Source: a virus
Taxonomy: Duplodnaviria > Caudoviricetes
Virus record (IMG/VR): IMGVR_UViG_3300036851_000122
Coordinates: 1-58,054 of that record
Length of the DNA stretch: 58,054 nt
Strand: one strand, 5' to 3'
A model generated the notes under the pieces. That model saw only the letters and a list, made by a program, of their open reading frames with translations. It did not search any database and was not told the origin of the DNA. Position 1 is the first letter of the stretch; every line of letters begins with the position of its first letter. A program made the position numbers and the translations under genes. This document shows, one piece after another, positions 7,716 to 54,523 of this stretch.

Positions 7716-7825
7716 ATCAGCCCTCCAAAGAAGAGAACGAATGCCAGTATAGCCATCAGGATGACCATCAGGCAGCTTTGGAAGCAGAAGTGCAACAGGT
7801 CTTTAATCAGTTCGTAGAGAGGCAT
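7712..7825 (-). CDS. Small membrane protein
   Basis: MPLYELIK..., one hydrophobic helix, AAAGGA RBS. Confidence 0.4.
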   Translation of the reverse strand: MPLYELIKDLLHFCFQSCLMVILMAILAFVLFFGGLI

Positions 7826-8942
7826 TAGTGTTCCTTTCCTGCCAGGCATAGGCACGACGTTCAATCCAGGAGCCGCAAGCCATTGACCAATCTGGACTGG
7901 CGATCTCCAAACAGTGAGCGAGAGCACGAGTGTAGTTGCGTGCCTTGTGGTCGTTCCAGGCGAGCAGCATTGGGCGGACGGTGTGCTGGAGAAATTTGTT
8001 GCTGAACTCACTGGAGTAGCAGTTGTACTCCTTAGTGAAGTCTGGTGCATGGAACAAAAAGCCAAGTTCAGTCATGAAATCTTTGCTGTCCTCCGTAAGC
8101 TGAAAGAGGCTTTGAGGACGCAGATGCTGACGGACGTATGGATCAGCAAGTTCACCACTCTTGAGCAGCTTCTCAGGAGACCATTTACCAGACCAGAGAC
8201 CATTGGCTCCTGCATACACATGGAGGTTGTTAGTTATCTGGCTATAGACGTTGGGTTTGAACCCGGTTGCCAGGGACATGTACTCCAGGAGGAAGGAGAA
8301 TGTGACGTAGTTGCTCCCAAGAGCTCCCAGGATCATATCGTTGCTGCGGTTGATAACAGTAAGATCGAGGAAGTCCCCACGTGGGAGGAGCATCACGTCC
8401 AGGTTACAGGGGACGTCTTTGCAAGTGGGAAAATTTTCGACTCTCTTGAGGTCCGTGTGCTCCCACATGCTGAGTACCACACGGCGACAGCTACGGTCTC
8501 TTCTGAGGATGTTGATGGCAGACTCAAGTTGGTGTACCTTCTGCCACCGCTTTCCGTAAGCACCATGCCACGTTATCCCGTCATCGGAGAATTCCCTTAC
8601 CTTGGGAGTAAAGTGCTCGAGGTAGGAAATCTCATCCTTGCCAGCTAGAACCCAGAGGGCCTCAAACAGGTGAAAGAAGGGGTTGGCGTCCCGTTCGTAG
8701 TTGAACAAGCAACGCTCAAGAGGGTTGGTGTAGGTGATGGTTACTGGTTCGTTGATGACCAACACTTCTCCATAGCGGCTGGGGGAATGGGAGATAGGTG
8801 GCTCATAACTCACAGGGAGTTGTTGGCGTTTGTTGAAAGCGTAGGTGTTTGGGTAGATTGCCATTCCCGAGAACCTTCCACTATTGAACCCCTTGCAGAG
8901 TTCAGTAAAGGCGTCGTTGACGTTGCGGTAGTATAGGTGCAT
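7803..8942 (-). CDS. Thymidylate synthase homolog, probable dUMP hydroxymethyltransferase
   Basis: RDANPFFHLFEALW, FSDDG..HGAYG.RW, catalytic KDVPCN, NRSND..LG..SN (Asn typical of dUMP specificity), NNLHVY; resembles the type found in hmdU phages. Confidence 0.8.
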   Translation of the reverse strand: MHLYYRNVNDAFTELCKGFNSGRFSGMAIYPNTYAFNKRQQLPVSYEPPISHSPSRYGEVLVINEPVTITYTNPLERCLFNYERDANPFFHLFEALWVLAGKDEISYLEHFTPKVREFSDDGITWHGAYGKRWQKVHQLESAINILRRDRSCRRVVLSMWEHTDLKRVENFPTCKDVPCNLDVMLLPRGDFLDLTVINRSNDMILGALGSNYVTFSFLLEYMSLATGFKPNVYSQITNNLHVYAGANGLWSGKWSPEKLLKSGELADPYVRQHLRPQSLFQLTEDSKDFMTELGFLFHAPDFTKEYNCYSSEFSNKFLQHTVRPMLLAWNDHKARNYTRALAHCLEIASPDWSMACGSWIERRAYAWQERNTNASLRTD

Positions 8943-9230
8943 CTTGTTTCCTTTGTGAACGAAATCTAGCAACAGTTTGGTGACGCTCCTCCTTCAGCAT
9001 CTCTGTGTACCACTCAGCTATACGTACCTCCTGTGGCTTCATGGTTTTTGTGTATGGCATCCATTCCCAGGCAGTGCAGTCGTGGATGTCTGCCTGTTTG
9101 GGCTGCTTGTCCAAAGCCGCCCCAATGAGGCGGGTGGCGTTTATTAGGTTTTGGGTCCATACTTCGGCGGCGTACCCAGCACCAGAGCGGTGGGGGAGGA
9201 ACAGGGCGAATAGGCGGAGGTTAGCGTGTA
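8902..9230 (-). CDS. Hypothetical protein (3' part of ORF 8902-9510, start uncertain)
   Basis: Fills the gap between the MazG-like and TS-like genes. Confidence 0.3.
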
Positions 9231-10084
9231 TCCCCTTCTTCCCCGTGGACTTGATCTTCGTACTCTGCCTTCGAGGCTGTTGATTCTCCAAGACGAGTGG
9301 ACTCGTCCTTGATTTCGTTTTCGAGGTCCGTGATGGAGCCAATGCGTGGCTCTTCTTCGATCTGCTCTTCAAGCCTCGCGAGGCTGGCGTTCCAGTTGGC
9401 ACGATTAGTCTCCTGTTCAGATATCCGCATAGCCTCGTTGATGATAGCGTGAATCTTCTCATCTGGGGGCACCCAGCTTGGAGGCTTCCTGGCTTTGCCG
9501 GCTCCATCATAGACGGCGTAGCAGCGAGTGGCTTCAGGCCCAGTCAAGACGAGCGGGGCTCCCTCTGGGGCTACACACTTGGCTGACCAACCTTCCTTAC
9601 GTTTCTCGGTAATGGTCTGACATTCCTCGTATGTCCACAGCTTGGACATGTTGGCGTCCTGGACTGCCTGCCAGACCTTCGCGAGAGGAACGCCATACTC
9701 CAGTGCCCAGCCGATCGCGTAGTAAATCAGATCGACAATAGCATCGGCCATGCCAGCCATGTCCTGTTTCTCGTAGGCTTCGTCGAACTCATCGAGTTCC
9801 TCGTGCAGAACAGCCTTGCGGAATTCCTGGCGATTCTGTGGGGGAAAGGCACAGGTCTTGAGGACAGGGTGATGAAACGCTTTGTGAAACTCGAACACAT
9901 CGCCGAGTAAGTCAGGGACGCAACCGCCAAAGAGGTCGAGCTGCATCTTCTGACTCTGGCGATTGAACTCGTAGGCACTTTTGGTGCCGAACATTTGCTC
10001 CGTGATCTCCTTGGCGATCTGCCGCTCGCCAATTTGGTTAGGTTCTGGGTAACGATTGCCATCGAGGACGTTTGGATCAGCCAT
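9221..10084 (-). CDS. MazG-like (PRA-PH/DR2231-type) NTP pyrophosphohydrolase
   Basis: VFEFHKAF, EELDEF, ADAIVDLIYYAIG, VQDANMSK. Confidence 0.85.
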   Translation of the reverse strand: MADPNVLDGNRYPEPNQIGERQIAKEITEQMFGTKSAYEFNRQSQKMQLDLFGGCVPDLLGDVFEFHKAFHHPVLKTCAFPPQNRQEFRKAVLHEELDEFDEAYEKQDMAGMADAIVDLIYYAIGWALEYGVPLAKVWQAVQDANMSKLWTYEECQTITEKRKEGWSAKCVAPEGAPLVLTGPEATRCYAVYDGAGKARKPPSWVPPDEKIHAIINEAMRISEQETNRANWNASLARLEEQIEEEPRIGSITDLENEIKDESTRLGESTASKAEYEDQVHGEEGDTR

Positions 10085-10115
10085 GAGTGGTGTCTCCCAA
10101 ATGTGGTTGAGGAAC

Positions 10116-10409
10116 TTACGCTTGTGAAGTGCGGTCGTGTCCGAAACACTTCTTGTAGATGCAGACAACAGCCTCTTCGATCTGCTCCTTTGCTTTGAGG
10201 GCTTCTGCTGTCCATTCATAAAAGATCTCCGGAGGACGTTCTCCTGTTGGATCAATGTGTACGGAGAACTTGAGGTTGTCCATTATTCGCCCGAGCAGAT
10301 CGAATAGTGGCTTAGTAGCACGTTGGTAGTCGTGTAACTGACGAATGGTGGGTCTTTCAAACCCCCTTATACTTCCGTTTGCTCTGCTTGGGGTTGGCTC
10401 CTGGTTCAT
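10116..10409 (-). CDS. Hypothetical protein
   Basis: ORF with GGAGG RBS filling a gap in the operon. Confidence 0.4.
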   Translation of the reverse strand: MNQEPTPSRANGSIRGFERPTIRQLHDYQRATKPLFDLLGRIMDNLKFSVHIDPTGERPPEIFYEWTAEALKAKEQIEEAVVCIYKKCFGHDRTSQA

Positions 10410-11682
10410 AATCTTCCTCCGCGATAGGATAGGCAACACGCATGTACTTGTCAAACTCACATAGTGAAGATTCTACCTCGCGGAGCTCAAATAGGGGAAC
10501 GGCTGGTTTGGCTCCTGGGTAGAAAGGTAGTGGCTTGATGAGCGATTCAAGAGCTCCTCCCTTCTTGAGTTCTGGCTGACACAGGTTGAACAGTTGCTTC
10601 ATCTCCGACAACCAGTTGTAGCTTTCCTTCTGAAAGTACATAGGGCGACCGAACAGTCGATTGAGACCACGCATGGCTCCAGGCCCGGCATTGGCCCATT
10701 GGAGAGAATCATCATGCGAAATGGCGTTTGTGAACCTTAAGTCGCAGACAATCTCGTAGGCCAGGAAGCGACCGATAGCCGGGAAGCTCTGCAAGTATCC
10801 CCAAGCCGCTTGCATTTTGCGGATGCCAATATCCTCCACGTCTAACCCCTGAGCTACGTTGTCAATGCAGGTGATGACAGAGTTCAGCTTGTTAGAGCCG
10901 ACTCCGCTGGCAACTACATGAGCTCCAGTGAAGCATTGCTTGTGGTCCTTTAGGAGCTCATAGGCACGCTTGCCGTCCCAGTTGGTGAACAGGGAACCCT
11001 TTAACCAACGAGTAGCAGTCTTGGCATCAGGAACTTGATCACCAAGCTTCCAGTCAGTTTCTGTGTTGCTGCCAGTCAGCAAACTGATCGCCGTAGGTAC
11101 ATGGTTGAACCATCTAAAGATAACGGTGGCCAAAACCACAGCCGGGTTCCTCTGCAATGGGTTGCGGACAAATTCTCGGAACCATGTGGTATTCTTGTCA
11201 AGTTCCCGGAACACGTTACAGAAGAAGTTATCGCGGAGGGTAACGTCCTTTGTCCAGGGCTTAGGAGCACCAGCCATCCGTAGATGTTGCATCTGGTGAC
11301 GTTCGTTCATCCAATAGAAGAACTTGGCCAGTTTGTCTGGGTCTATCTTCTGGTTGGGGTCAGGTTTGAAGTGTCTCCTCTGGCGGGGCTCGCCATTCTG
11401 TGGGGAATGGGAACCGATACGGGTAGTCGTAACAGCCTTGGCGGAAAGGGCACGCTTGGGGAGGGAGATCTCGTCTCCCCATTCGCCGTCGAGAGAGTAC
11501 AAAGGGAAGAAAGTAAAGTCGTAGCGATTCTTGTTTCCTTCCTGGGTAAGAACTTTAGCAGCTAACCCATCGTTGTCCACCACCTCTGTAGGTTGCCAAG
11601 GAGATTCAGGAGACAGGCGATACCAATACCAGCCTGGGCTATTTGGTAGCGTGCGACTTACGACCTGAGTTGCTAGAGGCAT
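10357..11682 (-). CDS. aGPT-Pplase1 family (5-hmdU DNA-kinase helical-domain-like) DNA base-hypermodification protein, copy 1, with small N-terminal PGWYW domain
   Basis: FFYWMNERH, PWTKD..L...FFCNVFRELD, HhH-like IGRFLAYEIVCDL, GPGAMRGL, EVESSLCEFDKY. Confidence 0.85.
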   Translation of the reverse strand: MPLATQVVSRTLPNSPGWYWYRLSPESPWQPTEVVDNDGLAAKVLTQEGNKNRYDFTFFPLYSLDGEWGDEISLPKRALSAKAVTTTRIGSHSPQNGEPRQRRHFKPDPNQKIDPDKLAKFFYWMNERHQMQHLRMAGAPKPWTKDVTLRDNFFCNVFRELDKNTTWFREFVRNPLQRNPAVVLATVIFRWFNHVPTAISLLTGSNTETDWKLGDQVPDAKTATRWLKGSLFTNWDGKRAYELLKDHKQCFTGAHVVASGVGSNKLNSVITCIDNVAQGLDVEDIGIRKMQAAWGYLQSFPAIGRFLAYEIVCDLRFTNAISHDDSLQWANAGPGAMRGLNRLFGRPMYFQKESYNWLSEMKQLFNLCQPELKKGGALESLIKPLPFYPGAKPAVPLFELREVESSLCEFDKYMRVAYPIAEEDYEPGANPKQSKRKYKGV

Positions 11683-11896
11683 GATTGTTCTCCGAAGGTA
11701 GAAAGCCAATATGGTAAGGTTCAGTAACATACTCCAACTCTTCTGGATGTAACCACTGCTCGTAGCGAGTAGTTCCATCCCACCAGGAGCATTTGTACTT
11801 GATGCAGTCATCTGAAGAGATCAATACTTCCACGACAATAACGGTAAGGTGGTTTCCAGATTGTATGCGACTGCCCGGACGGTGGACGTTAAGCAT
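11639..11896 (-). CDS. Small YodC/DUF2158-like SH3-fold protein
   Basis: KYKCSWWDG....WLHPEELE pattern; GAGG RBS. Confidence 0.45.
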   Translation of the reverse strand: MLNVHRPGSRIQSGNHLTVIVVEVLISSDDCIKYKCSWWDGTTRYEQWLHPEELEYVTEPYHIGFLPSENNHASSNSGRKSHATK

Positions 11897-11898
11897 AA

Positions 11899-12600
11899 CT
11901 ACCTCATACAAAAGATCAGCCTGTCATAGAAGCCGGGGTACTTGTCACCTTCGTACTTCTGGTCCAGACTGGGGATATAACTGACAGTTCGGAACTGTGA
12001 CCGCAGGAACTTCATGCGACGGCGAAAGTTCTTCATACATGGGTCTTTGGTTAGGTGGTACTCCATGCAGACCTTGCGGGCTGGAGGGCACCACTCATCG
12101 TCTAGCATGAGGAGCTCGCTGCCCTCAATGTCTAACTTGCAGCCGTCCCACTGGTTGTAGCCGCGATCCTTGAACAGTTGGGAAACGTGTATGTTCGGTA
12201 CGATAGCATAGGGGCGGGTGGATTTTATTGCCGTATAACGATAGCGGTCATCAGCACGGGTGCCCTTGTAGAACTGGATAGTGTCTGCTTCGTGAACCGT
12301 CACAGCGGAGTTGTGGGCTGTGAAGCCCTTGAGCCCTTGGAGGTTTTTGCAGAGGATTTCAAAGTTTTCCCCATCTGGTTCGTAGCAGTCAGCAGTAGCA
12401 CCTAGGAAGTGGCAGTAAAGAGCAAACGCCCCAATGTTGGCACCTAGGTCTAACCAGTGTTCGCCTTCTTCTACCTCGAAGCCCAGCATGGCTTTCCGGT
12501 AGCACTGGCCATCTATCACCTCCTTGAGGACGCGTTCGTCGGAGGTGTCTGGGCGGTAGCGGACAGGTCTGTCGCGGATGGTTTGGACGGCTATCATCAT
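11899..12600 (-). CDS. FkbM-family SAM-dependent methyltransferase
   Basis: WLDLGANIGAF, YEPDGENF, KLDIEGSE. Confidence 0.9.
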   Translation of the reverse strand: MMIAVQTIRDRPVRYRPDTSDERVLKEVIDGQCYRKAMLGFEVEEGEHWLDLGANIGAFALYCHFLGATADCYEPDGENFEILCKNLQGLKGFTAHNSAVTVHEADTIQFYKGTRADDRYRYTAIKSTRPYAIVPNIHVSQLFKDRGYNQWDGCKLDIEGSELLMLDDEWCPPARKVCMEYHLTKDPCMKNFRRRMKFLRSQFRTVSYIPSLDQKYEGDKYPGFYDRLIFCMR

Positions 12601-12782
12601 CTGGTTCCTCTAAATCCTTCGGACCACTCTTTAGCCTGCCAAGGGGCATAGCTCCCCACATAAGGATTCGCCTGTTCATTCTTACCAGAATAGTAAGCCT
12701 CCACTCCCTCATAATATTCCTTCTGCTGGTTGTTAGCCTTTGGGAACAAAATTATCCAGAGTCTAGTAAAGAATTCCATCAC
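12597..12782 (-). CDS. Small hypothetical protein
   Basis: Overlapping start/stop with both neighbours; EG..AY....NPY....EW..GF pattern. Confidence 0.5.
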   Translation of the reverse strand: MMEFFTRLWIILFPKANNQQKEYYEGVEAYYSGKNEQANPYVGSYAPWQAKEWSEGFRGTR

Positions 12783-13768
12783 CTTACTCCTTGGTAGTTG
12801 CGTTTGATGTTACCGTCACACAAGCGGGCACGTTCGTACTTATCAAATTCGCAGAGGCTGTGTTCTATCTCCCGCATCTCCAGTACAGGCATCTTGGGGA
12901 TTATGTATGTTTTGCGTGGTGCTTTAACTTGACGCCCACCTATCTTTAGAGAATGTATAATCGGTTCCCCTTCCACCTGCCACTGCTTCGAGGGAAGGTA
13001 ATCCTTGCTAAGCCGCAATAGCTCACGCATCTTTTGGAGGGCACCTGGGAACTTTGGCGTTTCACCGCGAGCGTAGGAGACCATTGGGGTAGGGAACACT
13101 CTGTATAGTCCACGGTTGGCACCTGGGCCGAGGTTAGCCCACGTCAGCTTGTCAGGTGCGTTCTCCAAGATGTGCGTGTAGCGGAGGTCGCATACCACCT
13201 CGTAGGACATGAAAGGTCCCATTTGGGGGTATTGCATAAGCCGACTGGTAGCAACTTCCAGGCTCATTGGGTGAGACTTTGGGTTGTTGTCCACGAGGTC
13301 CAGGTATAACTGCTCGCGGTCCCTCCACACAAGGCTGAGGATATCAACGGCTGCCTCGATCTTGGGCATACCGTTGTAGAGCTTGATGATGTAGGCTCCT
13401 GTGAATACTTGCTTCTTGGCTGCCACCAGCTTGCGGAGTTCCTTCAGACAGACATGAGATTGCCAGGAATTCAGTAGGTTGTACTCCAGCAGCATGTTGC
13501 CGGTGCTAATCAGGTTGAATAGACGGAAGGCCAGGGTGCCAAAGAGGACATTCTTGTGGTCCTTCCACTTGTCGCGGTAGGCTTCACGGAACCAGACTGT
13601 TGTGCGGTCCATCTCCCTGTAGGGGTTGGTGAAGAAGACGGATTGCATGACAGGGTCTTTGCTCCAGGGCTTTGGGCAACCCTGCTGGCGGAGATGGTGG
13701 ATTTGGTAGCGTTCCTGTGTCCAGTAGAAGAAACGCTCTAGGGGGTCTTTGGGGATGCTAGGCAACAT
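12779..13768 (-). CDS. aGPT-Pplase1 family DNA base-hypermodification protein, copy 2
   Basis: FFYWTQERY, PWSKDP, FTNPYREMD, MGPFMSYEVVCDL, GPGANRGL, EIEHSLCEFDKY. Confidence 0.85.
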   Translation of the reverse strand: MLPSIPKDPLERFFYWTQERYQIHHLRQQGCPKPWSKDPVMQSVFFTNPYREMDRTTVWFREAYRDKWKDHKNVLFGTLAFRLFNLISTGNMLLEYNLLNSWQSHVCLKELRKLVAAKKQVFTGAYIIKLYNGMPKIEAAVDILSLVWRDREQLYLDLVDNNPKSHPMSLEVATSRLMQYPQMGPFMSYEVVCDLRYTHILENAPDKLTWANLGPGANRGLYRVFPTPMVSYARGETPKFPGALQKMRELLRLSKDYLPSKQWQVEGEPIIHSLKIGGRQVKAPRKTYIIPKMPVLEMREIEHSLCEFDKYERARLCDGNIKRNYQGVR

Positions 13769-16094
13769 TGAACTCCACTCCTTCATCAGCCTTCGACCAG
13801 TTCTGGCTATGGCGGCTGATCTCAACTGGGGTAGGGATGCCAATGGCGTCTCCGCTAGAGGCCATAATGCGGCCGATCTCTTCGATCACCTGTTTGTTAC
13901 GCTGGTGCTTGGGGAAATCGAAGTCCAGCTCGTCGTGGATGGTCATGATCATACGGTAGGTAGGTTCCCCTGCCTTGGGGCCTCCCCTACGAATGCGTTC
14001 GTTCAACGTCTTGAGGTACGTGTGGACACGATTTATGGCGAGAACCATGCACCATCCGGCAGTACCCTGGACATAGTAATTGACAGCAACGTGAGGTTCG
14101 GTGGGCGGAACCCAGAGACGGTATCCACCTTCGCACGTGATATAACCGTATGCCTTAGCCTCAGCATCCTTTTTCGCAAGGAAGTAATCGACCCGCGGAA
14201 GGTTTTTGCGGATGGCATCGTATCCTCCTGGACGGTGGTAAGTGCTATCAGCTTTATCACGACCTGCTCCGTACAGCAGAGCGAAGTTTCCGTTCTTGGT
14301 CCACTGGTAGAAAGTGGTCTTGTACTTCTTCTTGAAGAGGTCACCGGCCTTGTGGGTATCTCCACTAGCTTCCTTTCTGCACGCCGCGAACTCTGTGGGG
14401 AAAAGGATCTCAGCAAACACTAAGTGAACCGCGTAGCCGGTCTCGAACGTCTCGATCAGCTTTTGGTCCTCTGCCTTGTAGCTGAAGATTCTCATTTCAA
14501 TGTTGCTGTAGTCGATAGAGAACCACTCCCTGCCGGGCATTGGTCCAAAGATTTCTCGAAGGCTCGGAATCGGGTCATCATCTCGCTTACCGCCCTTTCC
14601 GATGTTCTGAGCATTGGGCTGGGAAGAGGAGAAACGTGTAGTGTCTGTTCCCGTTGGATTAAAAGATGGGTGTAGTAGGAGCCAGCCGGTGCCGTTGGGC
14701 ATTCCCCGAAGGATGTATTCTTCAAGGTAATCTCGGGACTTTTCTCTTCCTCTGAAGGCAAGCAGCTTCCAGATAAACTCATGCTGAAGCGTTCCTTGTA
14801 GCTCGGGGCGAATGAGGAGACTTTCGAGTGTCTTGGCGTCAGTGCTGTAGCCAGTAGCGGTACGCTTCCCAGGGCGTATCTTCCAAGTGCCATAGAGGAG
14901 ACCTTCTAACTGCTTCCAGGAAGCTAGATTGTCTATTTTGGCAACAGGGCGGTGGGCAAACCCCTTCTTGGGTTTGGCACCAGGAGCAGGAGCCTCACGG
15001 GCAATTTCAAAGCAGCGGCTCTCCAGAGTGGCAGCTTCCTTGGCCAGCTTTTTGTCCATTGATGAAAGGCGTTGGCGGCTGGCGGTTACGCCCATATGCT
15101 CCATCTCGTAGATGGCTTCTAGCAAACGACGGCGTTCTTCGTAGAGTGGTAGAAGGCCCTGTTGCTCCAGGGCTTCTAGCTGTAACCACCAGAGACCGTA
15201 GGTACGCTCAGCATCACGGAGGGCGTAGGTTTCCAGAACCGTCCACCAGGGATGGTCTTCTGGGTAGTTGTAGAAACGAGCTACTGCTCGCGGGAGCCAA
15301 GTGTCGAAGACCCACCAGCCAGCTTTGGGAGCCTTACGGGTAGCTGGGAAGTGAGGGTGGCCTCCATCCTGGGCTATGGCCCAACCTAACTTGCGACCGA
15401 TAAGGCGGGCTTCGTTGGTGGCATCCCGTAAGTCTTGTTGGTCGTCGTCACGGATGTTGAGATACTGTAGTCCTAGCTCTTTGAGACCGTGGGACTCGTT
15501 GGAGCAAAGTACATGGCTGGCAATGAGAGTGTCCTGACAGGTGCCTAAGTTAATGCGAGGCAGCCCCAGCATCTCTAGAGCACGAACGTCGAACTTTGTA
15601 TTGTGGAGTATAAAGTGATGTTCGGCTATTAGCTTCTTGAGCTCAGCTTTATCTGCTTTAGGTGGACCGTTTATCCACTTGTTGCAGGACATAAGGGCGT
15701 AGGGATTAGTAGGCAGCCCTTGGGGATTTGCCCAGTAGCCGACTTCTCGTGTCTTGGGGTTTACGTCCCACTGCCAGAAGGTTAGCTCACCTTCCTCGTC
15801 ACAAGTAGATACAAAGAAGGGTTTGCAGCCGTGCCACAAGTCAACGCCAGTGGTTTCAGTGTCGAGGGCAAGCTGCCGAAATAGTTGGCGTTTATTAGTT
15901 AACAGGGGGGCCGGGGCTTTTGTGGGAGAAAGACCAATACCGCCTTTGAGGGGTTTGGCAGTTTTGGGTGTGTGGCTCAGTTCTTTTTGTAGTTGATACA
16001 GCAGCTCCCCAACCCCTTCTGGGGTCAATGGCTTAGGAGCACGCTGGTCATCGGGCTTGGGATAGCGGAGCTTCTGGGCTGGTTTGGTTTTCAT
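13758..16094 (-). CDS. polA: Family A DNA polymerase with 3'-5' exonuclease, no 5'-3' exonuclease
   Basis: ExoI LDTETTG, HNTKFD; TTRFSSSQPNAQNI; motif A DYSNIEMR; motif B KNGNFALLYG; motif C TIHDEL. Confidence 0.95.
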   Translation of the reverse strand: MKTKPAQKLRYPKPDDQRAPKPLTPEGVGELLYQLQKELSHTPKTAKPLKGGIGLSPTKAPAPLLTNKRQLFRQLALDTETTGVDLWHGCKPFFVSTCDEEGELTFWQWDVNPKTREVGYWANPQGLPTNPYALMSCNKWINGPPKADKAELKKLIAEHHFILHNTKFDVRALEMLGLPRINLGTCQDTLIASHVLCSNESHGLKELGLQYLNIRDDDQQDLRDATNEARLIGRKLGWAIAQDGGHPHFPATRKAPKAGWWVFDTWLPRAVARFYNYPEDHPWWTVLETYALRDAERTYGLWWLQLEALEQQGLLPLYEERRRLLEAIYEMEHMGVTASRQRLSSMDKKLAKEAATLESRCFEIAREAPAPGAKPKKGFAHRPVAKIDNLASWKQLEGLLYGTWKIRPGKRTATGYSTDAKTLESLLIRPELQGTLQHEFIWKLLAFRGREKSRDYLEEYILRGMPNGTGWLLLHPSFNPTGTDTTRFSSSQPNAQNIGKGGKRDDDPIPSLREIFGPMPGREWFSIDYSNIEMRIFSYKAEDQKLIETFETGYAVHLVFAEILFPTEFAACRKEASGDTHKAGDLFKKKYKTTFYQWTKNGNFALLYGAGRDKADSTYHRPGGYDAIRKNLPRVDYFLAKKDAEAKAYGYITCEGGYRLWVPPTEPHVAVNYYVQGTAGWCMVLAINRVHTYLKTLNERIRRGGPKAGEPTYRMIMTIHDELDFDFPKHQRNKQVIEEIGRIMASSGDAIGIPTPVEISRHSQNWSKADEGVEFNVA

Positions 16095-18117: not shown

Positions 18118-18155
18118 GTTAATAAACTCCAGAATGGTAACAAGGAACAGTAAAA

Positions 18156-21599: not shown

Positions 21600-21727
21600 A
21601 GTTGGCTGGCAATCGTAGGTTGTGGAGTTTATTAGCTGGGCAAGGTAGCGTGCTGGCTCCGCGGCACGCAGGGTTTGGACAGCGGTGGGAAAGCCAGATG
21701 TCCTCGCACTTGGGACAGAAGCGATAG

Positions 21728-23122: not shown

Positions 23123-23615
23123 CGGTGGTTTTCCGCTTCTTCGGTGGAAGTATAGGCGTCATGGCCAATGGACCACGGCTAATAGCAGCAACAGTTGGAC
23201 CGCTGGCGGCTTTCTGTGGGGAAAAGGCAGAAGCTGGAGCAGGCCGCAGAACCTCATGACCCAGAACCCTAAACACGGGACGTCCATCTTGGTCAACAGA
23301 CATGAGCTTCGCGTCCGTCACACGGAGTACAGGCTCCTGAGGGCGGTTCATCCGTGCGAGGTTTTCCAGGGGGACGCCCTTCCCGTAGCCCTCAAAGCAC
23401 AGGGAGCAGACTTTGAGCTCCTTGGCGATTTCCTTGCGGGTAGCAGTTCCATCGTGGACACGCAGTTGTTCCTTACGGTAGCCGAAGCCGGGAACAAAGC
23501 GGTCAACCATTGCCAGGCGAAACTTGGGAACTTCCAGCTCCCTGTAAATACGAATTAGGAGGGCTGGCCCTTTGGCGGAGTGGACGCGGTCGCAGACTTG
23601 GCAGCAGTAGCACAC
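22941..23615 (-). CDS. Hypothetical Cys-containing protein
   Basis: CQVC...CSLC; 3' end overlaps the resolvase. Confidence 0.4.
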   Translation of the reverse strand: MCYCCQVCDRVHSAKGPALLIRIYRELEVPKFRLAMVDRFVPGFGYRKEQLRVHDGTATRKEIAKELKVCSLCFEGYGKGVPLENLARMNRPQEPVLRVTDAKLMSVDQDGRPVFRVLGHEVLRPAPASAFSPQKAASGPTVAAISRGPLAMTPILPPKKRKTTDELIQNLEAEGGDSRQTLRKHPPSAKRGKQQDGKGRQPPPQAVPRQQILQGSAHNDPLPG

Positions 23616-23929
23616 GGTTTTGGTCCCGAATGGTTGTTAGCCGAACGGGATGCAGGAGTGCGGATCTGACCTACGTAGAACATGACAATATGCTCTACGG
23701 TTGGGAACATACTTACGCGGATGCCAGCTTTAGTGGCTTCCTTACGGAGACGGTTTTCCATGGACTCGGAGCTGCACGTGTAGTCAACTCCGCGGACTAG
23801 CTTGAGGCCCTTGCCAGCTTGGAAGTCCGTTTCTTTGCGTGCTTTCTCGAACCAGGAAGCGATGGGGTACTTGCTCGACACCCGACCGCGAGGTTTGGGC
23901 CTCTTAAAGTTTTTGATGATCTGGGGCAT
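23555..23929 (-). CDS. Basic hypothetical protein, possible DNA-binding regulator
   Basis: RGR..KYP..WF, LVRGVDY; first gene of the leftward operon. Confidence 0.55.
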   Translation of the reverse strand: MPQIIKNFKRPKPRGRVSSKYPIASWFEKARKETDFQAGKGLKLVRGVDYTCSSESMENRLRKEATKAGIRVSMFPTVEHIVMFYVGQIRTPASRSANNHSGPKPCATAAKSATASTPPKGQPS

Positions 23930-24032
23930 GTTGCACAATAAACTCTAAAGGAGCGTCTAGGGTTCCAGCTTTTCCACCACAGGGCGGGCTACTCTGCAAG
24001 AGAGAATCACCGTCTTGGACGCATCTACGAAC

Positions 24033-24081
24033 GGGGGGTCATCAGGTAAAGCTGATGTCTGGCCTTACGGCTTGAGCCCCC
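24033..24081 (-). ncRNA. Small three-way-junction RNA element
   Basis: GGGGG/CCCCC enclosing GCC-GTAA-GGC (GNRA loop) and CATCAG/CTGATG. Confidence 0.4.
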
Positions 24082-24111
24082 AACCCCTTTACAGGCTGGG
24101 CCTCCCAAAGT

Positions 24112-24194
24112 TGGCGGTACGGAAGTCCGTGGTGTGGTCACGCTGCGGAGTGGAACCTGACAGACCGCCTACCTACAGGCGGGACTTCCGTACC
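24112..24194 (-). ncRNA. CCA-ended structured RNA with a 13-bp terminal helix
   Basis: GGTACGGAAGTCC/GGACTTCCGTACC perfect stem followed by GCCA; internal CGCCT/AGGCG hairpin. Confidence 0.55.
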
Positions 24195-24196
24195 AA

Positions 24197-24327
24197 GGAT
24201 GCCGAAGGGGACTCGAACCCCCACACCCTCCGTAAGCGAGGTTGCAAGACCTTTAGGTCTGTAACCAGGAAGGCCCTGAGGCCACCTGCCGCTGGGAGGT
24301 ACACTGCCAATTGTGTTACCGGCATCC
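24197..24327 (-). ncRNA. tRNA-like RNA with a 63-nt insert replacing the anticodon loop
   Basis: Acceptor ATGCCGG/TCGGCAT, TA, D arm ACAC-AATTGGCA-GTGT, anticodon stem CCTCC/GGAGG, T arm GGGGG-TTCGAGT-CCCCT. Confidence 0.8.
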
Positions 24328-24604
24328 GTTGCATTCGCGTGGTTCTGTGGCTGACATCTCTACTTCATTAGACTTCCTCCTATGGGGTATGTGGGTGGTT
24401 GCTGTTGCTGCCAACCCCCAGCCTACCAGCAGAGGGCAGGGGGCAAGCTAGGGGTGGCGTTTATTAGCGTAAAGCATTGGCGGGTAAGGGTTTGTGGCAA
24501 ACTTGGCGGGTGTGCTTGTGCTGGCAGCCCCTATACGTATATATTGGGTGGCAAGTGCGGGGTGGCAGTGTGCTGCCTCAGAGTTTAACACAAGGAGTTT
24601 GGAC

Positions 24605-24958
24605 ATGGCTACGAATCGTGTGAAGGGTTACTGGTTGCAGATTAAGGAGATTCAACAGGAGAAGGGCTGCACGAAGGAGGAGGCCCAGGCGTGGTATAAG
24701 TCGCAGAAGAATGGAGCAGTTCCGGCAGAGAAGAAGCCTGTGGGAAAGAGCTTCCAAAACACGTTTGACCATCCTGGCGTGGTGGTCGAGTTCGCAGAAG
24801 CCAAGTTGCAGGAAATAGGGGATCAGGTTCGACTGTTGGAACTCCAACTAGAACAGCTTCGTTCCCAGGTGGCTGGTTGGGACCGGATTGCCAAGTCACT
24901 GGTTGACGACTCCAGCCCGGCGGCCATTGAGGCAGCCTACAGTCGAGCGGCCAAGTAG
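24605..24958 (+). CDS. Hypothetical coiled-coil protein
   Basis: ACAAGGAG RBS, MATNRV start. Confidence 0.65.
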   Translation: MATNRVKGYWLQIKEIQQEKGCTKEEAQAWYKSQKNGAVPAEKKPVGKSFQNTFDHPGVVVEFAEAKLQEIGDQVRLLELQLEQLRSQVAGWDRIAKSLVDDSSPAAIEAAYSRAAK

Positions 24959-25013
24959 CCAACACCACAACGGCGGGGGTGTGAGCCCCGCCTCTTTTGT
25001 AAGGAATAGTTAG

Positions 25014-25388
25014 ATGTCTGATAAATCTTTGATGAACCTTTGGGCCAGCTTTCTGGCAAATCACAAGCTTACAGCAGAACGAACAGGTAACTTGGAAGTC
25101 CTGCTGAGCTTGTGTAAACTTCTGGCAGCTATAGAAGGGCCGAAGGTAAAGCCACATACGGCTCGTCTGAGAAGTAGAAGACTAGTTTGCCTAACAGCTA
25201 TGGAAGCTGGAATCGACCTTACAGCCCTGAAGTGCCATGGGAAAGTAGCTATGGCACGGGGGCTGTTGGATATGTGGAACGCTTGCTACCAAGAACGCTA
25301 CGGTGGAACCTATGGAACCGCTCGAGCGAAGGAAGTTTCGCGTCGTGGCGTTAAGACCAAGTTGGCAGAACGTAACATGGAGGTCTAA
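25014..25388 (+). CDS. Hypothetical protein
   Basis: AAGGA RBS, operon context. Confidence 0.55.
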   Translation: MSDKSLMNLWASFLANHKLTAERTGNLEVLLSLCKLLAAIEGPKVKPHTARLRSRRLVCLTAMEAGIDLTALKCHGKVAMARGLLDMWNACYQERYGGTYGTARAKEVSRRGVKTKLAERNMEV

Positions 25389-25390
25389 CA

Positions 25391-25621
25391 ATGGTTCAGA
25401 TTGTCAGTACCGAGTTTGTGCCCGACGTCAGGGAACTTGGGCGGCTGTTCGTCAGCGATACAAACGGGTGGCAGTGGCCTGAGGACCAGTTTTCCAGTCT
25501 CCCCATACGACAGGCAATAGCTGCCAGGAAGAAGTTGCAGGAACAGGCGGCCAAGAAGTCGAGTGCGTTCTACAAGAAGAGATATCGTAGGCGTAAAGCC
25601 AGAAAGACAGGCAGGCGGTGA
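25391..25621 (+). CDS. Basic hypothetical protein
   Basis: GGAGG RBS, Arg/Lys-rich C-terminus. Confidence 0.55.
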   Translation: MVQIVSTEFVPDVRELGRLFVSDTNGWQWPEDQFSSLPIRQAIAARKKLQEQAAKKSSAFYKKRYRRRKARKTGRR

Positions 25622-25677
25622 TCTCTGTGGGGGAAGGGAAGAAGTGGTAACATCCACATTTCACAAGGAAGACAGTC

Positions 25678-27270
25678 ATGCAGAAAACAGCAGTCAAACC
25701 ACGAAACCGACCCAGCGTCCTCGAAGGTGGGCTTTCAGACGAGGCGGTTAAAGCCATGCGGGGGAAGATACGGCCGGAGCCGCTAGGAGGGCATCCGCAG
25801 AAGACGGTAGTCAGAACGAAGCCAGCAAAGCGGGAGCGAGTGTACAAGGAGGTTACGGCCACCGTGCGGCAGGGGAAGAATGCCCTGACGGTCGAAGAGG
25901 CAATGGAGCTAATTGGTTGGACCCCGGTAGATGAAGGGGAGTTCCACCTGCGGGACATCCACGGGGTGAAGGTATTTCTGAAGAATAATGCCACCAACCG
26001 TCCATTTAGGGATGGGCTGGCTAAACGGTATGCCAGCGAGATTCTACGTAACAAGTGGAAGCTCAACGGGGAGACGATGGTCTTCGACTGGTTCGGAGAC
26101 GCACAGTCCTGCCAGCACCGTTTGGTGGCGTTCATTCTGGCAGAACAAATGCGAAGGGAGGATGTTGGCAAGAAGGGCGGCGGGCAGGGCTGGAAGGATA
26201 AGTGTAAGGTTTACTGGGGACATGGCGGCCCGTTGACTATGGAGGTCATCCTAGTGCGGGGAATCAACCCCAGCCCGGAGGTTATCGACACGTTGGACCT
26301 TGGACAGAAGCGTACGCTGGGGGACCTGTTCTACAGGGAGGAAAGGTTTGCCGGCCCTTCTTCTGTGGAGGAAGAGAAGCAGAACGGAAAGCAGATGGCC
26401 ACGCCCAGAGTGTCCACCTCCACACGCAGGCAGTTGTGCAACATCCTAGCCAATGCCACGAGACTGGTTTGGCTGCGGGCGGGGGGTAAGTCAATTAGCG
26501 ATGCACCACACTTCCCCCATAGCGAAGCGTTGGATTTTATTAACGCACACAAACGTATTGAAGACTGTATCCTCTATATCTGGGGACTAGAAGGTGGTAT
26601 GGGGAAAGGGGGCAAGCATATTTCCAGGTTCCTCAGCCTAGGGTATGCGGCTGGGTTGCTATATCTGATGTCCACCAGCACCACCGAGCCGGATGACTTT
26701 GTGGAAAAAGGTGTGGAAGCCCTAGACTTCAAGCTGGAAAAGAAAGCAAAGGAGTTCTGGGCCAAAGTGGCCAGTGGAGCAAAGCTAGAAACAGGAGACC
26801 CGATCCTAGTGTTGCGGGAAGCACTGCCCAAGGTGGATGCTGGTAGCGGGTTGGGTAGGGATGAAATCGTGGGAATGGTCATCAAGGCGTTCAACCTCTG
26901 GGTGGATGGCCAGAAGAAGGTGCAGGATAAAGATGTAGCCATGAAGAAGCGGACGGATGACCTGGACCGCCCCAAGCTGGCGGAGGAGCCGAGGCTGGGT
27001 GGCATTGATGTGGCCGGTCCGGAGAAGCCCGATCCGTTGGACATTTTGACGGTGGACGATAATAGGGAGGGGCACCAGCAGCGGAAGGACAAAACGTGGT
27101 CGGAGGGGGATACCTGTTGGGTGCGGGATGCGGATGGGGAACACTGGTTCGGAACGATTGACGAAGTGGTGAAGGGTCCGTCAGGAACGGTAGCCAACAT
27201 TACGGATGTTGATACAGGCATCCAGTGGGAAGAGGCGTTGAAGAATCTGTGGTTGAAGTATCCAGGTTAG
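25678..27270 (+). CDS. ParB/Srx-like (DGQHR-type) domain protein
   Basis: N.TNRP....RYA..I....W.LNGE...FD.....SCQHRL.A, a variant of DGQHRL; D.G.KRTLGD. Confidence 0.7.
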   Translation: MQKTAVKPRNRPSVLEGGLSDEAVKAMRGKIRPEPLGGHPQKTVVRTKPAKRERVYKEVTATVRQGKNALTVEEAMELIGWTPVDEGEFHLRDIHGVKVFLKNNATNRPFRDGLAKRYASEILRNKWKLNGETMVFDWFGDAQSCQHRLVAFILAEQMRREDVGKKGGGQGWKDKCKVYWGHGGPLTMEVILVRGINPSPEVIDTLDLGQKRTLGDLFYREERFAGPSSVEEEKQNGKQMATPRVSTSTRRQLCNILANATRLVWLRAGGKSISDAPHFPHSEALDFINAHKRIEDCILYIWGLEGGMGKGGKHISRFLSLGYAAGLLYLMSTSTTEPDDFVEKGVEALDFKLEKKAKEFWAKVASGAKLETGDPILVLREALPKVDAGSGLGRDEIVGMVIKAFNLWVDGQKKVQDKDVAMKKRTDDLDRPKLAEEPRLGGIDVAGPEKPDPLDILTVDDNREGHQQRKDKTWSEGDTCWVRDADGEHWFGTIDEVVKGPSGTVANITDVDTGIQWEEALKNLWLKYPG

Positions 27271-28096: not shown

Positions 28097-28562
28097 GGCA
28101 GGGTGCTAGGAATGGGGTTGGCGTTTATTAGTTTACCGCTCAGTAGGGTGTATTCCCACAGAAGAATATAAGCCACCTAGCATAGTTGGCGTTTATTGCC
28201 ATAAGGCATTCAACCTTCGGAGGTTGCCACCAACTAGGTGCCAGTGCTTCCTGTTAAGCTGGGTAAGCTAGGCAAAAGCGTAAACTGGGCAAGTTGGGGT
28301 GTATGCCCGTAAAGCCCCACAATAGGGCCTAGCGGGCAGCCGAGCGGCTAAGGGTGCTGGGTGCCAGCTAGGGGCGGCGAGGGCTGCCAAGCTGCGGCTA
28401 GGCGTGCTGGCTAAGGCGGCTGCTAGGCTGGCCGAGCAGCGTGGGCGCGGGTTAATTGCCAGTAGCGGGCTGGGGTTTACGTATCCCGCGAGCGTTCAAC
28501 CGCCAGCCGGACCAGGGATGGCAGCGGGTCGGTTCAATCGAGCTGGAAGGCGAGGCCGGTGG

Positions 28563-34173: not shown

Positions 34174-34379
34174 AGGTTTTGGATTTTATTAGCGATTGTA
34201 CCCGTTAGGGTCAAACGCTAGTGAGCGAAGCGAATGTAGCTGGAGACTTCTAGTCTCCAAACTGGGCAATAAGCCAAGGTAGCAGAACAGCTATAGTAAG
34301 TAGGAGAAGAATAGCAACCAGGACCAAGGCTGAAGGAATCCAGTCAGGGGGTGGGTCGCTCTTCTGTGGGGAAAGATGA

Positions 34380-39148: not shown

Positions 39149-39955
39149 CTAAAAGACGGCTGCTCTTATGGCAGTAGCTGTGTCCCGCCAGAGTTGAGCG
39201 ATGCCTGGAATGTTTGTGGTCGTCAGATTTCTGGCTTTGAAGAGGTTTGCTTGATACTGGGACAGTCCTGGATCAAAGAACTTTGGTCCCCAAATAGCCG
39301 CTTCGTCTGGCGTGAACAGGCGACCATTTTCAACAGAGGTCAAAAGCGTAAAGTCTTGCAGGCTTCTGACTTCATTTGTGGCTACTGCTTTGGAAGCTAC
39401 GCCTTCGTAGTTGTCAGCGATCTTGAGAGCCTTTTCCTTGGAGTAGGAAGGACCAAGTGCTTTGAGAAGTGTAAACAAGTGCTTAGCGAACGGATCAGAA
39501 GGACCGGGGCCAGGAATAGGGTCCGGGTCTGGATCAGGAGTTGGGTCGGGGCCAGGTCCAGGTGGAACGGGTGTCCCGCCAACCTTGTAGTCCTTCTTGT
39601 ATTGCTGGATATCTATCCCAGAGATCACCCTGCGGTCAACAACAATTCTTTTGGACTGGTCAGCCGGATCGGGAATAGAGACCTGGAGGAGCTCGTAGGT
39701 TTTGACCAGTACAGTGGCTTCGATCCAGTGTGGGCCGGGTGGTGCCCATACGTGGAGTTTATTACCGTTTTCGGCGGTAACGGTCTTGGCAGCATTATCC
39801 ACTCTCCATAGGAACATAGCTTCCCCATCCTTGGGGATTATGCAGTTGCATCCTGCAACAATCGGATCGTATGGAGCTACAACGTCTGGCACTTGAATCT
39901 GTGCCAGTGCTGAGGAAGTGAACAGGAGGAACAGTAGGCAGCTAACTCTGGTCAT
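39149..39955 (-). CDS. Secreted protein with a Pro-Asp linker
   Basis: Signal peptide ending ALA-Q; PGPDPTPDPDPDP linker. Confidence 0.65.
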   Translation of the reverse strand: MTRVSCLLFLLFTSSALAQIQVPDVVAPYDPIVAGCNCIIPKDGEAMFLWRVDNAAKTVTAENGNKLHVWAPPGPHWIEATVLVKTYELLQVSIPDPADQSKRIVVDRRVISGIDIQQYKKDYKVGGTPVPPGPGPDPTPDPDPDPIPGPGPSDPFAKHLFTLLKALGPSYSKEKALKIADNYEGVASKAVATNEVRSLQDFTLLTSVENGRLFTPDEAAIWGPKFFDPGLSQYQANLFKARNLTTTNIPGIAQLWRDTATAIRAAVF

Positions 39956-40541: not shown

Positions 40542-40637
40542 GTGGCACCTATGGAGTAACCACTCCAGAGGCAGGGAGCCGACGAGGCGACCGTACCTTT
40601 GGAGTTTATTGGCAAAATGGGGGCTACGGGTTAGTGG

Positions 40638-54437: not shown

Positions 54438-54523
54438 AAGTGCCTCCGAGTGTAAGGGTGCAACCGGCTACTTTGGATTTTATTAGTTCATACGGGTCAC
54501 AAGCCAGGGCATATTTAGCAGTG

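Follow-up and report, generated by a model that had tools for sequence, protein, structure and literature searches.

A perfect 13-bp hairpin abuts an insertion-bearing tRNA-like gene in the replication-operon leader of a soil phage

Introduction

Compact structured RNAs that sit beside transfer RNA (tRNA) genes, or that are cut by the enzymes of tRNA maturation, have been described in phages and in bacteria, and we compare them here with a perfect 13-bp hairpin (element 2) that lies next to an insertion-bearing tRNA-like gene (element 1) in a soil phage. Both are on the minus strand of the window, by which we mean the whole stretch of DNA analyzed, the 58,054-nt IMG/VR virus record IMGVR_UViG_3300036851_000122, estimated to be 82% complete. 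The closest described parallel in position is the theta ribozyme, a minimal ribozyme of the hepatitis delta virus (HDV) type whose location element 2 shares and whose fold it fails. Theta ribozymes are found within +/-5 nt of phage tRNA 3' ends and have been proposed to define the tRNA 3' trailer (bioRxiv 10.1101/2023.06.13.544163). Like those described by Kienbeck et al., element 2 would form a compact structured RNA a few nucleotides from the 3' end of a phage tRNA(-like) gene; the theta ribozymes of that report, however, are nested double pseudoknots from gut phages, whereas element 2, from a soil phage, is a nested 13-bp helix with a branched interior and no Rfam match to an HDV-like family. 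Moreover, element 2 is a single sequence, for which no conserved catalytic core can be defined.

The irregular and allo-tRNA polycistrons of soil bacteria (Mukai et al. 2017, PMC5389517) have in common with this locus a soil origin and a non-canonical tRNA-like gene, and element 1 places a G-1 opposite C73, as does the 'G-1 tRNA1' species described there. Unlike the polycistrons of that report, element 2 has no cloverleaf, and it lies in the leader of a phage messenger RNA (mRNA) rather than in a toxin-antitoxin or tRNA cluster. RNase P also acts on substrates other than tRNA, those described including the acceptor/T-stem minihelix, the transfer-messenger RNA precursor and the C4 antisense RNA of phages P1/P7 (PMC3858429). 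The 12-bp acceptor/T stack compares with the 13 bp of element 2, with a purine-CCA in both, and element 2 is phage-encoded and next to a tRNA-like structure. Element 2 differs from these substrates in having no T-loop/D-loop mimic above chance and a helix one pair longer, and the tRNA genes of its clade do not encode CCA.

Stem-loops at the 5' terminus stabilize bacterial mRNAs, and hairpins protect the mRNA ends that tRNA excision creates. Element 2 resembles the 5' stabilizers as a strong helix 0-3 nt from a predicted new 5' end, in a clade where tRNA-abutting hairpins are frequent; it differs from them in that its 5' end is a prediction and in that the hairpins of its relatives are mainly on the 5' side of the tRNA. 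The tRNA cluster of phage T4, finally, encodes stable non-tRNA RNAs matured by tRNA-processing enzymes, whose function is not established; unlike these, element 2 is a single orphan in an mRNA leader.

Results

A first-pass annotation of the sequence had described a perfect 13-bp helix ending in G-CCA, two nucleotides after a tRNA mimic. The helix is indeed perfect: its arms (GGUACGGAAGUCC and GGACUUCCGUACC; coordinates of all features are in Table 1) are 53 nt apart and form 13 of 13 Watson-Crick pairs, with no G-U pair among them, and are followed by G24115 and CCA. The spacing holds as well, with only UU between the helix and the acceptor stem of element 1 at its extended length of 9 bp; in standard tRNA numbering the helix starts 4 nt after the discriminator, C73 (24198). 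Of 200 first-order Markov simulations of the 58-kb window, 5% contained a perfect inverted repeat as long as this one (13 nt or more, within 150 nt; mean 0.05 per sequence, against the one observed), and the helix is thus non-random and statistically unusual. The 86-nt element 2 has a folding energy of -39.5 kcal/mol (z = -4.27 relative to 200 dinucleotide shuffles), and its helix is kept in both the minimum free energy and the centroid fold of the whole leader (24345-23930; z = -1.74 for the leader itself). The opposite strand of element 2 is nearly as stable (z = -3.21), an indication that the signal is the Watson-Crick inverted repeat itself, which points neither to one strand nor to RNA rather than DNA as the level of action. 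Beyond this inverted repeat, the signal of element 2 holds nothing more specific.

The same annotation had seen a CGCCU/AGGCG hairpin and a T-loop-like GG-UUCCACU-CC within the helix. These letters are present, the hairpin as CGCCU(G)/(U)AGGCG, but the 53-nt interior taken alone folds at chance level (z = -0.16, with 85 of 200 shuffles folding equally well). T loops have the consensus UUCRANY, from which UUCCACU departs with a C at the purine position; moreover, this loop is closed by 2 pairs where a T arm should have a 5-bp stem, and it lies apart from the 3' acceptor strand. The G24115 and the CCA that follows it do occupy the places of a discriminator and a CCA end after an acceptor-like helix. 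However, the GCCA lies within the motif CCGCCAA, which occurs 18 times in the window where 8.63 occurrences are expected, three of them at 24111-24509, and since none of the 23 tRNA or tRNA-like genes of the clade encodes CCA, the GCCA is not diagnostic of a tRNA-type gene. ARAGORN reports 0 genes in the window by default and, with introns allowed and an 80% threshold, makes no sense-strand call over 24194-24109. The description of element 2 as a second, tRNA-like, CCA-ended RNA is therefore not sustained.

Nor does the GNRA-containing three-way junction proposed for the downstream hairpin cluster rise above chance, with z = -0.53 (minus strand) and -0.40 (plus strand) for the stretch 24112-24020. 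An alternative fold of this cluster, a 74-nt cloverleaf-like four-way junction, was rejected for its shuffle-level stability and absence of a tRNA signature. The 5' part of element 2 is partially repeated, in direct orientation, in the next hairpin (24174-24189 versus 24090-24105, 81%). What stands of the first-pass description is a perfect hairpin abutting a tRNA-like element in the leader.

Comparison with known RNA classes gave no family for element 2. Rfam yields 0 matches in the whole window at gathering thresholds, and at E<=10 on 23600-24700 its sole row is a mir-4451 look-alike outside element 2, which coincides with the long hairpin of the leader (24410-24458) and which, at 24.8 bits against a gathering score of 100, we take to be chance; no ribozyme family is matched in that range at the same threshold. 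An HDV-like or theta ribozyme fold is ruled out, as the first 13 nt of element 2 pair contiguously with the last 13 nt: the two 13-mers form one nested helix, which would place P1 and P2 one inside the other instead of in a knot and would leave 59 nt for the role of P3/L3. The location is nonetheless that of a theta ribozyme, G24194 lying 4 nt after C73 and hence within +/-5 nt of a phage tRNA 3' end. A hammerhead was considered for the CUGAUGA at 24045-24039 and rejected; it is the paired 3' strand of a CAUCAG/CUGAUG hairpin, and no hammerhead model matches at E<=10. No intrinsic terminator is found on the minus strand in a scan of 23500-25800, the helix being followed by GCCAACUUUG with no U-tract. 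Against the minihelix substrate of RNase P (about 12 bp and a 3' RCCA), element 2 has 13 bp, or 14 with a U-G pair, and GCCA; it is off by 1-2 pairs, and a 53-nt branched interior takes the place of the minihelix loop.

Element 1, the upstream neighbor that had been called a tRNA mimic, is by its sequence clearly tRNA-derived. Its acceptor stem of 7 bp (A1-G7/U66-U72) is lengthened to 9 bp by G-1:C73 and G-2:C74, the former of which we take to be a histidine-type identity feature. U8-A9 follow, then a D arm, ACAC-AAUUGGCA-GUGU, in which the GG is present, and a 5-bp stem, CCUCC/GGAGG, that encloses a 61-nt insert at the place expected for the anticodon loop; a 5-nt variable region leads to the T arm, GGGGG-UUCGAGU-CCCCU, and the gene ends in the trailer C73-C74-U75-U76. 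ARAGORN misses element 1 by default and, when introns are allowed, places it at c[24197,24325] as its only call in the window; element 1 is also the only match of a strict acceptor and T-arm scan of both strands of the whole window. In the global fold of the leader, CCUCCCAG within element 1 can alternatively pair with UUUGGGAGG, which directly follows element 2.

We assembled relatives of the locus with alignment-based searches, which gave 53 IMG/VR loci and 36 metagenome loci with a best protein identity of 48-50%; the nearest phages share 41-50% protein identity with the window. Single-protein searches of IMG/VR returned 2 loci at 41% with the exonuclease and none with either p124 or p171, and a distant blastn search of the phage database with 23900-24500 returned no nucleotide match, the best DNA-polymerase match there being 23% identical. 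The relatives set comprises 85 sources, namely 84 related loci and the window (823,059 nt, 0.82 Mb), to which 4 whole relative records were added. The gene order p530 (divergent), leader, p124, p224, UDG, exonuclease is conserved in relatives, but the leader sequence is not, and even the nearest relatives have no alignable leader. Searches of all loci with the leader by blastn (word 7) and nhmmer found no element 2 homolog; apart from short chance matches they returned two stretches of 16 nt, one that matches the promoter-like motif in L005 and one, in the T arm, that matches a tRNA in L027. A covariance model of element 2 (R1), built from its single sequence, recovered from the 85 sources itself, its own opposite strand (E 0.18) and one row at E 6.8, and so no homolog; it found nothing significant in the 4 whole records. 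As there are no relatives closer than about 50% protein identity, the check for covariation is one without power rather than one that failed. A pattern scan of IMG/VR for the T arm and acceptor of element 1 gave 2 matches, both rejected as chance and both in coding sequence of unrelated high-GC contigs. A relaxed scan for tRNA-like elements near p124 homologs gave 7 sense and 7 antisense matches in 25 regions, an indication that a tRNA-like element near p124 is not general; the match in the window alone is convincing. In the sample that was probably the DNA source a single contig, identical to the window, is present, with no variants.

The tRNA and tRNA-like genes of the clade, 23 in number with element 1 and 22 genes in relatives, show a common 3' pattern. 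After the acceptor stem, 22 of the 23 have U as the third base and 14 have C as the second, the usual form being N73-C-U, which suggests that the hosts of these phages share one CCA-less rule of 3' processing. With its C73-C-U-U and this pattern, element 1 looks like a substrate of a CCA-less, RNase Z-type route. Insertion-bearing tRNA-like genes of 95-140 nt, with canonical acceptor, D and T arms and either large inserts or expanded anticodon and variable regions, recur in the clade, and element 1 belongs to them. Seven of the nine are called by ARAGORN solely with introns allowed and with unreliable anticodons, and one (L029 9835-9951) is never called. Some relatives carry a tRNA with a CUA anticodon, of amber suppressor type and labeled tRNA-Pyl by ARAGORN, and others carry tRNA-like genes with 4-nt or 2-nt 'anticodons'.

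Strong hairpins abutting tRNA and tRNA-like genes are a habit of this clade. Over the 100 nt on their 5' side, the 23 genes have a mean folding energy of -33.1 kcal/mol, compared with -26.9 kcal/mol for 400 random windows (Mann-Whitney p = 0.0009). On the downstream side, 6 of the 23 have a contiguous helix (score at least 8) that begins within 8 nt, compared with 8.8% of 1500 random positions. Both of the nearest relatives carry comparable perfect closing stems in this neighborhood. L004 has, between its p124 and p224 homologs, a tRNA-like element without a D arm (region 3979-4190), and a perfect closing stem of 14 bp (3979-4099) stops 3 nt short of it. In L005, UUU and a copy of the AATAAAC motif come after a 13-bp stem in the leader (3658-3724; region 3658-3740).

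The window is that of a tailed phage, with lambda-type large terminase, portal, capsid and tape-measure genes on the minus strand at 58-28 kb, a short plus-strand block at 25.0-28.0 kb, and a minus-strand replication block at 24-2.9 kb that includes UDG, a PD-(D/E)XK exonuclease, a Sak4-like ATPase, a family-A DNA polymerase, a primase and a thymidine-hypermodification set. The plus-strand block includes a ParB-like protein of 530 aa (p530; PHROG 5931), whose operon diverges from the replication operon. The latter runs p124, p224, UDG, PD-(D/E)XK exonuclease, Sak4-like, PolA, and its first gene, p124, for which no Pfam or PHROG family was found, has tblastn matches in 25 of 90 sources searched, the window's own gene counted. 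Elements 1 and 2 lie upstream of this operon in a non-coding stretch of the minus strand, from about 24640 to the p124 ATG, as the first-pass annotation had placed them. Four open reading frames (ORFs) overlap the leader and, unlike p124, have no homolog in the related loci. Two of them, 24015-24371 (+) and 24173-24334 (-), overlap elements 1 and 2 and are treated as non-coding; the others, a 171-aa ORF at 24642-25157 (-) and a 154-aa ORF at 24494-24958 (+), for which no family assignment was obtained, overlap it only at its far upstream edge, and the non-coding control region may extend to about 1.1 kb, including 24640-25014. The approximately 1-kb control region between the divergent operons is rich in short repeats (CCGCCAA, TTGCCMC-like), and a terminator-like hairpin is present on the plus strand at 24972-24992. 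The hypermodification set consists of two 5-hmdU DNA kinase homologs, a thymidylate-synthase-like gene, a MazG/PRA-PH-like pyrophosphatase and an FkbM-type methyltransferase, and the phage DNA is probably hypermodified.

On the minus strand the leader presents, in order, the motif CTAATAAACGCCA, a long hairpin, AGGAGG with a two-codon ORF, element 1, UU, element 2, GCCA and small hairpins, the last of which (24020) is about 90 nt from the p124 start. The motif, of the form CTAATAAAC(G/T)CCA and 13 nt long, has 15 copies in the window at up to 2 mismatches, compared with 0.92 expected, and 14 of the 15 are on the minus (coding) strand, mostly directly upstream of gene starts and in some cases 1-7 nt before the ATG. 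Its core, YYAATAAA[CA], is strictly sense-biased in the nearest relatives (4:0 in L004 and 6:0 in L005), and the motif is probably a clade-specific promoter or other transcription signal; transcription of the leader likely starts in the region of the copy at 24467-24455. A puzzling pair of copies at 28.1-28.2 kb aims into the 3' end of the plus-strand block. The AGGAGG is a perfect Shine-Dalgarno sequence 7 nt before the two-codon ORF and about 35 nt upstream of the tRNA-like element, an arrangement reminiscent of the two-codon minigenes known from phage lambda.

Table 1. Positions of the leader features, motif copies and clade tRNA-like genes; relatives are given by locus number.
Feature	Position	Strand	Basis or remark
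Promoter-like clade motif CTAATAAACGCCA, 13 nt	24455..24467	-	~130 nt upstream of tRNA-like element
Long hairpin directly after motif	24410..24458	-	read from sequence
AGGAGG Shine-Dalgarno (24381-24376) and two-codon ORF ATG AAG TAG (24368-24360)	24360..24381	-	read from sequence
Element 1, insertion-bearing tRNA-like gene	24197..24327	-	sequence, fold z -2.94, scans, ARAGORN with introns
UU spacer	24195..24196	-	U24195 can wobble-pair with G24115
Helix 5' arm GGUACGGAAGUCC	24182..24194	-	sequence and inverted-repeat search
Element 2 interior	24129..24181	-	hairpin C GCCUG-UAGG-UAGGC G; weak GUCA..UGAC arm with GG-UUCCACU-CC
Helix 3' arm GGACUUCCGUACC	24116..24128	-	sequence and inverted-repeat search
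GCCA after helix (CCA at 24114-24112)	24112..24115	-	within CCGCCAA(C)UUUG, near-repeat of 24509-24498
Downstream hairpin cluster ('GNRA junction')	24020..24111	-	CCCAGCC/GGUUGGG, GCC-GUAA-GGC, CAUCAG-CUUUAC-CUGAUG
p124, first replication-operon gene	23555..23929	-	conserved across clade; ATG at 23929
Motif copies	452-464, 2238-2250, 4711-4723, 9135-9147, 15886-15898, 18119-18131(+), 21623-21635, 24455-24467, 28119-28131, 28187-28199, 34180-34192, 39753-39765, 40600-40612, 45527-45539, 54474-54486	- unless marked	at <=2 mismatches
Hypermodification genes	12779-13843, 10357-11811, 7803-8972, 9221-10255, 11899-12600	-	
Insertion-bearing tRNA-like genes	L002 9680-9774; L009 9991-10100; L020 9653-9765, 9840-9958; L029 9835-9951; L049 10996-11095, 11173-11311; L054 10324-10428; window 24327-24197(-)		
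Genes with unusual anticodons	L012/L013/L016 10044-10115; L047 12365-12452; L042/L043/L046 2222-2299(-)		

Discussion

What we observe is the helix, its place beside element 1, the tRNA-derived nature of element 1 and a trailer pattern common to the clade; from these we tentatively favor a reading that we hold to be short of probable: that element 2 is a structural hairpin in the 5' leader of the replication-operon mRNA, functionally paired with element 1 and capping a new 5' end. A second tRNA-like gene has no part in this reading. In its favor, besides, are the hairpins that abut tRNA and tRNA-like genes elsewhere in the clade, the L004 stem among them, and the promoter-like motif upstream on the same strand. 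Minus-strand transcription of the leader would probably begin at that motif, and host tRNA-maturation enzymes would recognize element 1, with RNase P cutting at its 5' side and an RNase Z-type enzyme after the discriminator C73 at its 3' side; such processing of element 1 is plausible. The 3' cut would leave a downstream mRNA that begins with CUU and passes directly into a perfect helix of 13-14 bp, and a helix so near a monophosphorylated 5' end would protect the transcript that carries p124 and the replication genes against 5'-end-dependent decay. Genes in need of protection lie, in the window, only downstream of element 1, which would explain a hairpin on the 3' side. In relatives the tRNA and tRNA-like genes follow protein genes, and there the hairpin lies on the 5' side, a place from which it would protect the new 3' end of the upstream mRNA. 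That the hairpin is a variant of hairpin-flanked tRNA punctuation is a suggestion we make with low confidence.

Several observations weigh against capping by element 2. The arrangement in the window is atypical of its clade, where it is the 5' side of tRNA genes that is enriched in structure and the 3' flanks of the 23 genes show no significant excess of it (p = 0.17). No homolog of element 2 was found and hence there is no support from covariation, and the absence of G-U pairs together with the near-equal stability of the other strand fits a DNA-level palindrome equally well. L005 has a second perfect 13-bp inverted repeat (9463-9539) inside coding sequence, an indication that such repeats in the clade are not always RNA elements. 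The only sequencing run with the stretch is the probable DNA source sample, no RNA run being listed.

Less likely than capping, in our view, though it ranks first among the alternatives, is that element 2 has no function and arose incidentally, through a local inverted duplication or through the rearrangement that gave rise to element 1, and that it is still perfect by virtue of being young. An orphan with no homolog in 0.82 Mb of related loci or in the 4 whole records, in a leader that the nearest relatives do not conserve, is what this explanation would lead one to find; the partial direct repeat at 81% and the 5% of simulated windows that hold such an inverted repeat agree with it as well. 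Yet chance is unlikely to put a repeat expected in 5% of genomes as close as 2 nt to the sole tRNA-like element of the 58 kb, and analogous perfect stems stand at comparable places in L004 and L005.

An unlikely account is that the inverted repeat acts as DNA, forming a cruciform or binding a protein, in replication initiation, recombination or regulation between the p530 and replication operons. All 13 pairs are Watson-Crick and the two strands are nearly equal in stability, the repeat is placed in the repeat-rich control region between divergent operons, and the perfect repeat within a gene of L005 implies that an RNA function is not required. However, arms 53 bp apart would be unusual for a dimeric operator, the region is about 60% G+C rather than AT-rich, and the window has no further copies of the arms. 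Moreover, the exact abutment of element 2 to a tRNA-like element, with a similar case in L004, points to a logic of RNA processing.

The view of the first-pass annotation, that element 2 is a separate small stable RNA, an acceptor-like minihelix of 13 bp with a 3' GCCA that forms a polycistronic cassette with element 1, we consider quite improbable. RNase P would release this RNA at G24194, and trimming at the CCA would complete it. A 13-bp helix with R-CCA does resemble the acceptor/T-stem stack with RCCA that is described as the minimal substrate of E. coli RNase P, and this enzyme matures phage RNAs with tRNA-like elements, for example the C4 RNA of P1/P7 (PMC3858429); tandem irregular tRNA-like transcripts, furthermore, are reported from soil metatranscriptomes (PMC5389517), and the gap to element 1 is just 2 nt. 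On the other side, relaxed ARAGORN settings and Rfam alike fail to recognize element 2, its interior is at chance level, and its T-loop-like heptamer is without the conserved purine. An encoded CCA is no local signature of tRNA-type genes, as 0 of 23 have one; an N-CCA after a helix is a 1-in-64 chance that was noticed post hoc, and the GCCA belongs to a motif that recurs in the leader.

A different role for the leader RNA is, by a little, harder still to credit: an RNase III-type site, a cis-acting antitermination/attenuation structure or switch, or a new self-cleaving RNA that would free the 3' end of element 1. Thirteen base pairs is short for a classical RNase III site, and the helix ends in no U-tract terminator. 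The alternative pairing of CCUCCCAG with UUUGGGAGG would suit a switch. Element 2 lies where theta ribozymes lie, within +/-5 nt of phage tRNA 3' ends as reported for them (bioRxiv 10.1101/2023.06.13.544163), but its one nested helix is incompatible with an HDV-like double pseudoknot, and no ribozyme family of Rfam is matched at E<=10.

We regard as very improbable a two-part mimic of tRNA ends, made early in infection, in which an anticodon-less tRNA-like RNA (with the histidine-type G-1:C73) and a CCA-ended 13-bp minihelix would both be freed by tRNA-processing enzymes and act as decoys or sponges, drawing off host factors of the acceptor end; if true, the targets could include, for example, defense toxins that alter or cleave the CCA end, or the machinery of CCA addition and of RNase P, and the mimic would be a class of RNA-based counter-defense with no described family.

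For now, element 2 remains an orphan known from one sequence. Should its hairpin indeed cap the end of an mRNA made by excision of the tRNA-like element, tRNA-punctuation logic would here build the 5' end of a phage replication mRNA, and one of the odd insertion-bearing tRNA-like genes of this uncultured soil-phage clade would have a function. The main value of the finding is as a pointer to the unusual tRNA-like genes of this clade and the hairpins that flank them, a clade-wide set that is of more interest than the hairpin itself.

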